This document shows positions 35,612-39,101 of a stretch of 64,000 nt of DNA, one piece after another. The notes below the pieces were generated by a model, which had not been told where the DNA came from, made no database searches, and worked only from the letters and a program-made list of their open reading frames with translations. The first letter of the stretch is position 1. Each line of letters opens with the position of its first letter. Source of the stretch: Raillietiella orientalis (taxonomy: Eukaryota); contig JAYWIR010000026.1 in the NCBI GenBank assembly GCA_036172245.1, positions 682,001 to 746,000 of the forward strand, written 5' to 3'. The translations under genes were made by a program, and so were the position numbers.

Positions 35612-38600
35612 ATGCCTAGAAGTTCACGTAGTAGAACAAGCACATCTCCAAGGAAAGGAACTAGGAAAAATCCTAGAAATCCTTCTCCGTGTGAGGATGA
35701 AAATCATGAATTAGAACCTTCGGAAAGTGGTCAAGTGGAACCTGTTTCTGACCAAGATAGTGAGTTTTTTGTTTATGCAATTACTATAAAGGGATAAAAT
35801 TATTATGTTCACTCATAAAAATAGTAGTAAGATGTTGATTCTTTTATTGACAGTGTTGCAAGGATGACTCATCCATATGACCAGGATCCTCACATAGAAA
35901 CTAATCCCAGGGATTAAAGTATTAGATTTGCCTTTGAGCAAAGTCTGTGTGGAAATGAGTGGTTGAAGAGATGGTTTTCCCACTTAGTTGCTGCTTCAGT
36001 TATTTGAATGAGTGAACCTAATAATTTTATTTCCAATTTGCTAGCACATTGAGACCAAGATAATTTCCTGCAAGACTTGAGAGATGGACTTGGAGACTCA
36101 ACTTGGAAAAACTTGGAAAATGTGGAAACCACTAACCTTAATTGCTAATATTGATGATACAATTGTAGGAAATAGCAACTGCACATCTGCATTGCCCAGA
36201 GCTTCCCGTAGTAAAACAAGTGCATCACCAAGAAAAGGTGTAAGAAAAAGTCCTAGGAATCCTTCTCCATGTGGTGAAGAAGAGAATCATGAAATTGATT
36301 CTTCAGAAGGTGGTCAGGTGCAAACTTCTGTTTCCGACCATGAAAGTAAGTTGCTATCTTTGCAGTGATTTCAGAGTGTAAACGTTATCAGGTTCTGTAG
36401 GCAATGAAGCCAATAGTTTTGCTTCTGATTTGCTGGCACAGGGAGATGGAGTCAAACATTTGGAAGACTTAGGCAAAAAGAAGAAAACTCCAGAACTGGA
36501 GAAAGCTTGGGAGCCTGTTCAAGAAGATTCGACTGATTTCACTGGTTGGACCTTTTTGCTTCAGTATGTCGATCAGGAGGTGAGCAGCATTATGCTGAAA
36601 TTTGGCAGTTTTTCTTTTTCTGTTTTTTATTCTTTTGCACAAAATTTTTCTTTTATTGTAGGATGATGTGGAATCAGCAGAAGAAGCTTATGATGCATTT
36701 TTAGCTCACTATCCTTACTGTTATGGGTATTGGAAAAAATTTGCTGATTACGAGAAGCGTCGTGGACTTCTGGATTCATGCGATAGAGTGAGTGTTACAT
36801 TGATTTACCTTTACCCATCACATGCCACCCCTTATTTCTGTCGCAAATGCGCATTAATTAGGATTCCAAAGTAGAGCTTTTGCAAGGTTAGGTTAGGCCT
36901 GAAAGTGAGTAAGCAAATGGAAGGTAAGCCTGCGTTTTCACCCAGTGTGCTTTAATCCAACGGGTGTTCTGTGTTCTTCCCATGCAGGCTGGGGGCATTA
37001 GGACCCCCCTGTCCAGGGTTATCAGCACCAGGTGCCAGCTGTGAAGGAGGGTAGTGTACCGGGTGTGCCCTCTGGACTAAGTTGTTCTTAGCATTCAATT
37101 GGCTGGTACTGATATACTGTATTTGTAGGTATTTGAACGTGGTTTGAAAGCAGTGCCCCTCAGTGTGGATTTATGGGTGCACTTTCTCAACTATTATATG
37201 AGTCGAGTAACAGGACAACCTGGAGCAGAAGACCACATACGCTATCAGTTTGAAAGAGCTATTGGCATCTGTGGCTTGGAATTTAGGCATGATATATCTT
37301 TTGGTGTAATTAGGTATATTGAAATGTTTTCAGATCCAGTAAACTGTGGGAATTTTACATTCGATGGGAGAATGAGTTCCATAACTTGCAGAATGTGATG
37401 TCTTTATATGACCGACTGCTTGCCATTCCTACTCAAGCTTACAACACACATTTTGAGAAGTATGTTTGTCATAGTTGATTGGTCCATACTGTGCATCCTT
37501 TTAGTTTTCAGCAGTTTGTGAATTCACATAGCCCCAAAGATATTTTGACACTAGAAGATTTTATTGCACTCCGTAAGGAATTAGGACACAAACCTACAGA
37601 TCCTAGCACAGCAGAAGAAACAAATGAACCAGAGTCTGAGGTGCCACCTGGCATGGAAAGTGAACAGAATGCTGTTGTGGTATGTGATTGGACCATCTTT
37701 TGTGATTGATTTCTTCCTGTTACATAGATCTCTGAAGAAGAGGTGAAGGCTATGAGAGATCGTATTATTGATTTGAGACGCAAAGTTCATCATGCCAATG
37801 AAATCGAAGTTAGCAAGCGCTGGAACTTCGAAGATGGAGTAAGTAGCATGTTTGTACATGTTTTTGGAGACTCTTTGTGCCCCTTTAGATTAAACGACCA
37901 TATTTTCATGTTAAACCTTTAGAAAAAGGACAGTTGAAGAACTGGCAAGACTACTTGGAATGGGAGATTATGCAGGGCCAAGAGCAGCGCATTTTAATTT
38001 TGTTCGAGCGTTGCCTCATTGCATGTGCTCTCTATGAAGACTTCTGGATGATGGTACTGCACAGAAGTAACTGCTGATTGCTAAACTGTTGTGTAGTATG
38101 TTAGGTACTTAGAAACACGTGGGCAAATGTATGCAGGATTGTTAGGGGACGTATTAGAACGAGCTTGTAAGATTCATCTTCCAAAAAAACCAAATATCCA
38201 TTTGAAATGGGCTGCTTATGAAGAAAGCAAAGGAAACCCTGCACGAGCAGCTGACATACTGCTGCGTTTAGAAAAAAATGTCCCTGGTTTGCTACAGGTC
38301 ATGTATCGACGTATCAATCTAGAACGCCGCAGGGGTAGACTCTTGGAGGCTGAGCTGCTGTATCAACGTTACTTAGATCAGCTTGCAGCTAGTGGAGAAA
38401 AGGAATACATGGCTGCCAATTTGGCCATTAAGTATTCACGGTTTTGTGCTAAAGTGAGTTGCACTATATTATAATAGTCAACTATATCATTGTTAAGGTC
38501 TTGGGAGATCGTGTTAAAGCATTAGCTGTGTTACAAGAGGCAATGGAGAGGGAAAAGGTAAAGAATCACAGAGTTGGAACAAGCTATCAAACAAGTCTTC

Positions 38601-39101
38601 TGTTTTTAGGACAATCCACGTTTGTTCATGCAGCTTATTGATTTGGGTATGCAACAGGATCCTCCAGATTTGCAAGCCATAAGTGCTGCTTTTGATCGTG
38701 CTTTGTCCAGTGATCTAGACATAGACCAAAAACTTATCTTTAGTCAGCGTCGCGTTGAGTTTCATGAAGATTTTGGTGTGGATGTAAACCATGTGCAGCA
38801 GGCTATGGATGAACACCATAGACTGATCAAAGAAGCGCGTCAGAGTAACCGTAAACGGTCTGCAGAAGGTGATGCGTGGACAGATGCTAAAAAGGCAAAG
38901 GCTAGTCGTAACAGCAATGGCACTGCAGCTACTGGTCAATGGACACAAGCTGGATATGCACAAATGGCTCAACAATATTATCCCTATTCTCAGAGTTATG
39001 GTAGCTACACTGCAGCAGACTATTCATCGTGGGGTTATAATCGCAATTACAGTGGTTATAATTATGGAACAGGACAGTGGGGATCGTACGGTTATTTCTA
39101 A
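35612..39101 (+). CDS. PRPF39: Pre-mRNA-processing factor 39 (HAT-repeat U1 snRNP protein); exons 35612-35759, 36169-36345, 36401-36579, 36662-36787, 37129-37286, 37334-37459, 37505-37679, 37728-37838, 37889-38053, 38097-38453, 38498-38557, 38610-39101
   Basis: [93 protein letters not shown] and a Tyr/Gly-rich tail are PRPF39 hallmarks. Phases are consistent. AATAAA at ~39362. Confidence 0.96.
36862..36929 (+). promoter_or_regulatory. Candidate poison exon with clustered 5' splice-site motifs inside a PRP39 intron
   Basis: Acceptor TTAATTAG| at 36861. Donor-like motifs GTTAGG (36887), GTTAGG (36892), GTGAGT (36905), GTAAGC (36909), GTAAGC (36924). In-frame TAG at 36889-36891. Confidence 0.6.

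Follow-up and report, generated by a model that had tools for sequence, protein, structure and literature searches.

In a 64,000-nt stretch of the Raillietiella orientalis genome (GenBank assembly GCA_036172245.1, contig JAYWIR010000026.1, positions 682,001 to 746,000 of the forward strand; hereafter the window, in whose numbering positions are given), the orthologue of PRP39 (pre-mRNA-processing factor 39) carries in its third intron an acceptor-like AG followed directly by five stacked 5' splice-site motifs. The cluster is unique in the window, and in other invertebrates truncating isoforms arise at the same intron. Intron 3 is probably a site of regulated unproductive splicing in R. orientalis, and on balance we favour reading it as a whole as a conserved unproductive-splicing module built around a cassette exon. 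By analogy with known systems, the module may also sense the activity of PRP39 and of the U1 small nuclear ribonucleoprotein (snRNP), a suggestion that we make with more reserve.

Organization of the third PRP39 intron

The PRP39 orthologue is encoded on the + strand at about 36084–39101. Pfam searches of single exons returned both HAT_PRP39_N (PF23240, E 1e-14 and 1.4e-14) and HAT_PRP39_C (PF23241, E 3e-27 and 3e-19), and the presence of the N- and C-terminal families together is the HAT-repeat architecture of PRP39/PRPF39 proteins. The best homologues in the database come from insects and bear the name pre-mRNA-processing factor 39; their identity is only about 50%, and the protein collection therefore holds no close relative. 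The gene model was based on tblastn with two homologues, reading of the sequence and two spliced RNA contigs. Contigs of one sequencing run are 95–97% identical to the window and confirm the introns 36580–36661 and 37680–37727 by splicing, which identifies the run as RNA; the 5' boundary of exon 3 was set by one such spliced contig. In all homologues compared, exon 3 leads straight into exon 4, and therefore no constitutive coding exon is hidden between them.

In order, the introns of the gene measure 55, 82, 341, 47, 45, 48, 50, 43, 44 and 52 nt. Intron 3 is thus four- to eightfold longer than the other nine (43–82 nt). A preliminary description of this DNA had already set it against the much shorter introns downstream (43–52 nt), and a recheck of the sequence showed that all its coordinates for the intron, the acceptor, the donors and the TAG are correct. 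The features of the intron and its flanking exons are as follows.

36662–36787, + strand, PRP39 exon 3 (E3), 42 codons, ending on a full codon; HAT_PRP39_N, E 1e-14
36788–37128, + strand, intron 3, 341 nt, phase 0, from GTGAGT at 36788 to TGTAG at 37128; length outlier and proposed regulated unit
36794–36861, + strand, AG-free stretch (by AG count), 65% pyrimidine, ending at the internal acceptor AG
36862–36886, + strand, candidate poison microexon in its shortest form, 25 nt; longer forms end at 36891, 36904, 36908 and 36923
36887–36929, + strand, five stacked 5' splice-site motifs, starting at 36887, 36892, 36905, 36909 and 36924
36887, + strand, donor-like site AAG/GTTAGG
36892, + strand, donor-like site TAG/GTTAGG
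36905, + strand, donor-like site AAA/GTGAGT, the same as the real donor of intron 9
36909, + strand, donor-like site TGA/GTAAGC
36924, + strand, donor-like site AAG/GTAAGC
36889–36891, + strand, in-frame TAG, contained in all exon forms except the shortest
36938–37087, + strand, GC-rich island (from GC windows) downstream of the donors, candidate binding platform
36964–36987, + strand, second internal acceptor GTGTTCTGTGTTCTTCCCATGCAG/G, strong, with a pyrimidine tract and CAG/G
37129–37286, + strand, PRP39 exon 4 (E4); HAT_PRP39_N, E 1.4e-14

The authentic donor of intron 3 reads AGA/GTGAGT. No AG occurs between 36791 and 36860 (66 nt), a gap with a chance of about 0.014 by AG frequency, and the AG at 36860–61 then forms the internal acceptor TTAATTAG/G, downstream of which AGs are dense. 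Judged from the sequence, an AG-free zone giving way to dense AGs is the pattern typical of an intron-to-exon transition. Pairing of the authentic donor with the 36861 acceptor would remove a mini-intron of 74 nt (36788–36861), and pairing of the 36924 donor with the second acceptor one of 64 nt (36924–36987), both of the usual size for the PRP39 gene, and the 341-nt intron reads like mini-introns separated by non-coding exon-like pieces. The second pyrimidine-rich acceptor at 36987, reported earlier together with a G-rich segment behind it, is present, and the segment has a GC content of 0.55–0.68. The GC-rich island as a whole reaches 0.55–0.58 in 60-nt windows and 0.68 in one 40-nt window, against about 0.42 in its surroundings.

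Depending on the donor used, the candidate exon would measure 25, 30, 43, 47 or 62 nt, and the translations of all five forms stop prematurely. As had been proposed, the first donor (36887) would yield a 25-nt exon that shifts the frame, here into a TGA at 37134–36 in exon 4, and the later donors would include the TAG. With its 25 nt (a microexon being at most 27 nt), a length that is not a multiple of three and canonical sites, this shortest form would on sequence grounds alone be a poison microexon. The other ways of processing the intron also introduce stops: joining the authentic donor to the acceptor at 36987 would add 141 nt with an in-frame TGA (frame checked by eye), and plain retention would end at the TAG at 36872–74, in an open reading frame (ORF) of 36662–36874.

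The same intron in other invertebrates

Metagenome contigs were scanned with an alignment of PRP39 homologues, yielding 63 loci. A phase-0 GT-AG intron of 278–2247 nt lies at the same codon boundary in 27 of these loci (15 distinct sequences), which by best protein match span cnidarian-like to insect-like animals; most of the remaining loci are intron-less contigs resembling complementary DNA (cDNA). A scan of genome contigs returned just two loci, both in bacterial metagenome-assembled genomes and irrelevant here. When measured introns were compared in rough gene models, the orthologous intron was the longest in all six insect-like loci tested.

L022, orthologous intron 957 nt, others at most 163 nt
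L023, orthologous intron 937 nt, others at most 187 nt
L039, orthologous intron 741 nt, others at most 191 nt
L037 (ant), orthologous intron 801 nt, others at most 557 nt
L011, orthologous intron 1010 nt, others at most 975 nt
L001 (termite-like), orthologous intron 1368 nt, against 686 nt

The orthologous intron likewise ranks first in length in L050 and L061, and does not in L060, L044 and L051.

Four lophotrochozoan-like species share an island within an orthologous intron that is otherwise unalignable: a pyrimidine tract with an AG is followed by a mini-exon, 14 nt long in three species and 19 nt in L050, and then by GTAAGG. Visual comparison over about 42 nt shows the same sequence in two species, a single base changed in a third and 5 nt inserted in L050; the flanking coding exons of the same species are 84–90% alike and the upstream intron about 30%. 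The mini-exon occupies the following positions of the intron.

L050, nt 1039–1057
L052, nt 1375–1388
L058, nt 816–829
L061, nt 1069–1082

Its inclusion would shift the frame and lead to a stop 3–11 codons into the next exon, and about 170 nt of conserved GC-rich sequence follow it. The ant intron (L036/L037) has a strong internal acceptor at nt 145, and GTAAG-type donor-like motifs at 301, 375, 457 and 461; of the orthologous introns, it is the one in which donor motifs are clearly in local excess (8 observed, 2.8 expected). In the window, in the ant and in the four-species group, the candidate exon has a GC-rich island just downstream of it. The candidate exon of L022/L023, with a conserved acceptor and an in-frame TGA, is moderately supported, and the cnidarian-like group has conserved intron ends and no clear mini-exon. 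Footprinting was also tried on seven termite-like loci and abandoned, as these are 95–97% alike, too similar for their low-variation stretches to be interpreted.

Truncated transcripts and proteins

Candidate products of this junction were also found in transcript-like and protein sequences. L026, an intron-less contig resembling a full-length cDNA, has an 87-nt insert (nt 305–391) with an in-frame TGA at exactly this position. For a census of proteins, those under 543 aa that match the two exons before the intron were collected, and the best 120 of 373 were classified. In 62 of these 120, the equivalent of exon 3 runs into V-S, V-R or V-C tails, which are translated GTRAGT and therefore represent read-through into the intron; in nearly all 62 the upstream intron has been spliced out. 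The remainder of the 120 comprises 22 proteins with other tails, 26 that continue normally, one of them misfiled and really a read-through, and 10 too short to call. Among the 97 proteins that could have extended by 240 or more residues before reaching the length limit, 46 are read-through, 16 have other tails, 25 are normal and 10 are too short.

Read-through was verified in an ant, where the L036 intron encodes all nine tail residues in its first 27 nt, and in a termite relative, where 8 of 9 residues match the termite-like intron. Proteins with other tails include the RefSeq isoforms X2 of Papilio polytes, X2 of Nomia melanderi, X4 of Acyrthosiphon pisum and X2 of Biomphalaria pfeifferi. 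The tail of the bee N. melanderi X2 maps inside the ant intron at nt 150–314 (55% over 56 aa, E 8e-13), starting directly after the strong ant acceptor at nt 145. Among the database proteins, one named Rab-1A (Eumeta; P0084) joins the N-terminal part of PRP39 to Rab-like sequence and is probably a chimeric gene model.

The predominance of read-through over other tails among these 120 proteins (62 against 22) speaks for the main rival to a cassette exon, namely regulated retention (detention) of the whole intron, with the donors either incidental or serving as decoys for U1 that hold up the authentic donor or compete with it. A proposal cited in PMC3798272, that adjacent 5' splice sites bound simultaneously by U1 inhibit each other, would suit such decoys, and in the window read-through would stop after 28 codons (ORF 36662–36874). 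Other lineages, however, keep conserved internal acceptors together with exons. In the window, the stretch without AG that ends at 36861, and the two mini-introns of ordinary length (74 and 64 nt), have the look of genuine splice units. Retention and a cassette exon could occur side by side, and as a full account of the intron we consider retention rather improbable.

Rarity of the stacked donor motifs

Donors were scored against the 5' splice-site consensus CAG/GTAAGT. The site at 36924 matches it at 7 of 9 positions, that at 36905 at 6 of 9 and the authentic donor at 36788 at 5 of 9. The window contains 134 copies of GTNAG on the + strand and 164 on the - strand (density 0.0023 per nt), and at least three copies within 45 nt are found at this locus alone, on either strand (128 kb of strand). 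The locus holds five, and the antisense strand of intron 3 none. As in U1-70K, an AG, here at 36861, is followed within about 100 nt by at least three 5' splice-site motifs on the sense strand.

Dinucleotide shuffles of intron 3 produced a cluster of five in 0 of 5000 cases and of at least four in 0.3%. When the whole window was shuffled block by block and both strands were counted, five were reached in 3 of 200 cases and at least four in 14.5%; shuffled windows do reach five sites, and a whole genome would therefore hold some such clusters by chance. Moreover, two pairs of sites are not independent, since the tandem GGTTAGGTTAGG supplies two of them and two others overlap in GTGAGTAAG. The tandem, at 36887–36898, comprises 2.4 copies of TTAGG. 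TTAGG is the usual arthropod telomere repeat unit, a likeness that is probably coincidental.

The shuffles and the linked pairs, along with the absence of an RNA structure signal, would fit a slightly longer intron in which a short tandem repeat and some motifs resembling GT-AG happened to arise, with no function in this species. Such an origin would involve a large coincidence, because the cluster lies on the sense strand, in the single outlier intron, in a gene for a U1-associated protein and directly behind the acceptor-like AG that closes the 66-nt AG-free zone, and because the same intron is the longest and is alternatively processed in many other species. Chance is therefore unlikely.

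The intron was also searched for other content. Compared with shuffles, excess RNA structure was absent from intron 3 (z +0.86) and from its GC-rich block (z +0.81). Rfam matched nothing inside intron 3, nor in L058 or L050; its two weak matches in the window (E 0.58 and 0.92) lie outside the intron, with 36580–36781 overlapping exon 3. ARAGORN found no tRNA in intron 3, the ORFs of the intron matched no Pfam family (best E 0.17), and neither a second copy of the block or intron within the window nor a look-alike among the other windows compared was found. The contrast between the GC-rich block (0.55–0.68) and its surroundings might suggest that the extra length is left over from an inserted element, or represents an unrelated RNA gene within the intron, with the donors irrelevant, but these negative searches and the similar GC islands in the orthologous intron of unrelated lineages make this very improbable.

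Evidence weighing against a conserved cassette exon

Several observations count against the cassette-exon module. Within the window, the acceptor at 36861 is only moderate (..GCGCATTAATTAG), two of the donors are GTTAGG, weak with T at +3 and born of the short tandem repeat, and the RNA contigs leave 36681–37586 uncovered, intron 3 included, which makes exon use in this species a prediction. Among the orthologous introns, blastn gave no match to the intron of the window, and an nhmmer profile of the four-species island matched nothing in other lineages, so that no sequence similarity links the candidate exon to the others. In L022/L023 the GC island lies about 200 nt upstream of the candidate exon. 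No excess of donor motifs was found across the orthologous introns (67 against 62.2 expected in sense, 40 against 43.0 in antisense), and a general enrichment was rejected, the apparent sense bias being compositional. On the side of the products, L026 has a second in-frame stop (TAA at nt 1535) and may therefore be a processed pseudogene, or else a poison-exon transcript with an error. The census is biased, since a length limit combined with a search anchored on the adjacent exon enriches for events at the intron closest to it, and the read-through tails could partly reflect slow splicing of the longest intron of the gene.

The five-fold stack itself was seen in the window only, among introns compared from distant lineages. 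L022 has three overlapping GTGAG motifs (GTGAGTGAGTGAG), and the lophotrochozoan-like group a single GTAAGG after its mini-exon. Conservation of the cluster in orthologous introns, which the preliminary description had looked to, was thus not borne out in the distant lineages compared: the stack is not kept as such there, and there is no overall excess. Its view of the intron as a site of unproductive splicing gains strong comparative support from the conserved mini-exon, the L026 insert, and the truncated proteins and RefSeq isoforms of other species, a support that does not extend to the five-donor cluster.

Gene model and neighbouring features

The remaining exons of the PRP39 gene model are listed here.

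To 36345, + strand, E1
36401–36579, + strand, E2
37334–37459, + strand, E5
37505–37679, + strand, E6
37728–37838, + strand, E7
37889–38053, + strand, E8
38097–38453, + strand, E9
38498–38557, + strand, E10
38610–39101, + strand, E11

Intron 4 (37287–37333, 47 nt) appears to be of the GC-AG type (TAG/GCATGA ... TTTTCAG/A), as this is the sole reading that keeps ..LEFR/SSKLW.. colinear with the homologues. The first coding exon is duplicated in tandem, the copies at 35612–35760 and 36190–36345 being 77% identical and about 580 nt apart. An ATG of its own is present in the upstream copy, whose donor A/GTGAGT is in phase 1 like the A/GTAAGT of the downstream copy, and from their sequences the two are likely alternative first exons of PRP39. 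Between them lies a 30-nt inverted repeat (35794–35823 and 36001–36030, 90% complementary).

Relation to known systems and proposed mechanism

The precedents that had been invoked for this intron, exon 7a of U1-70K (PMC3798272) and a PRPF39 exon subject to nonsense-mediated decay (NMD; PMC6582350, PMC13408128), exist in the literature. In U1-70K (SNRNP70), binding of U1 to a cluster of three cryptic 5' splice sites turns on the 3' splice site upstream of them, that of exon 7a, and use of the exon leads to a premature termination codon (PTC) and NMD (Rosel-Hillgartner 2013, PMC3798272). The two systems share a long intron in the gene of a U1 snRNP-associated protein, and an alternative 3' splice site followed by cryptic 5' splice sites with the weaker before the stronger (PMC3798272). 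They differ in the gene and in the number of sites, three clustered plus one further downstream against five here; the U1-70K cluster is conserved among vertebrates and U1C-dependent, and activation of its acceptor by U1 was shown there (PMC3798272).

Human PRPF39 carries a poison exon between exons 8 and 9, which is excluded from a PRPF39 minigene in PRPF39-knockout cells, and overexpression of intron-less PRPF39 lowers the endogenous mRNA (PMC13408128). Inclusion is thus promoted by PRPF39 and also by a factor in the downstream intron, where bound TRNAU1AP drives the exon (Nat Commun 2026, PMC13408128; PMC11389820). In mouse and human the exon is a weak NMD target (PMC6582350), and the truncated product of this system lacks the dimerising C-terminal domain. 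The window shares with it the gene family and a candidate alternative exon that carries a stop (De Bortoli 2019, PMC6582350; Schmok 2024, PMC11389820). The element described here differs in having a 25–62-nt candidate exon with five stacked donors and in lying in the third coding intron, at about profile position 68/168 of the N-terminal HAT domain; given this early position, against exons 8/9 in human, the two introns are probably not homologous. Human PRPF39 promotes weak 5' splice sites, whose use falls on PRPF39 knockdown, and it binds GC-rich RNA, with GC-rich, A-poor 6-mers occurring within 100–150 nt of sensitive sites (PMC9808567).

Among invertebrates, the prp-39 gene of C. elegans has a non-annotated 5-nt microexon inside its TPR/HAT region, with a PTC predicted, and its authors suggest autoregulation of U1 components; in the available part of that work no stacked donors are described, a difference from the present intron (bioRxiv 10.64898/2026.09.14.751627). 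A full-text literature search found no paper on a poison exon or retained intron of arthropod PRP39. For the minor spliceosome, Verbeeren et al. are said to have described a tandem U12-type 5' splice-site element in U11-48K and U11/U12-65K, in which the cognate snRNP on the tandem motifs reportedly activates an upstream 3' splice site. That element resembles the present one in its tandem donors and in belonging to genes for the snRNP's own proteins, and differs from it in spliceosome, in motif and in having two copies.

Following these analogies, we propose a mechanism for the cassette-exon module. Productive mRNA would require that the donor at 36788 be joined to the acceptor at 37128 over a distance of 341 nt. 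The AG at 36861, only 74 nt from the donor, could instead open a mini-exon of 25–62 nt, which any of the five donors could close. U1 snRNP would bind the stacked donors, possibly aided by PRP39 on the GC-rich island just downstream, and this binding would define the mini-exon and activate the upstream acceptor. In every mini-exon product, as in plain retention, translation would stop after the second HAT repeat, with mRNA decay or a truncated protein as the likely outcome. More active PRP39 and U1 would then produce more dead-end mRNA, amounting to negative feedback.

Poison-exon feedback of splicing factors is already known, including for human PRPF39, and the architecture described here resembles that of U1-70K exon 7a. 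What would be new is that truncation appears to occur at a different and very old PRP39 intron in insects, in annelid- or mollusc-like animals and in this arthropod, a pattern visible in public protein sets and RefSeq isoforms, and that a compact genome holds a minimal version with stacked donors. For annotators, the truncated PRP39 models labelled isoform X2 or X4 are probably regulatory dead-end products. More speculatively, the phase-0 intron before the 'VFERG..PLSVDLW' exon might be an ancestral self-limiting PRP39 switch of invertebrate animals, predating the mammalian exon 8/9 poison exon and distinct from it. PRP39 on the GC-rich island would guide U1 to donors that are weak or stacked, and a mini-exon that introduces a stop would thereby be defined. 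If so, the window would present the switch in its minimal 341-nt form (acceptor, microexon, five donors and GC island), an unusually small model for a sensor of U1 activity, and an easily handled one, whose compact layout would make direct tests of U1 and PRP39 level sensing easy with a small minigene.

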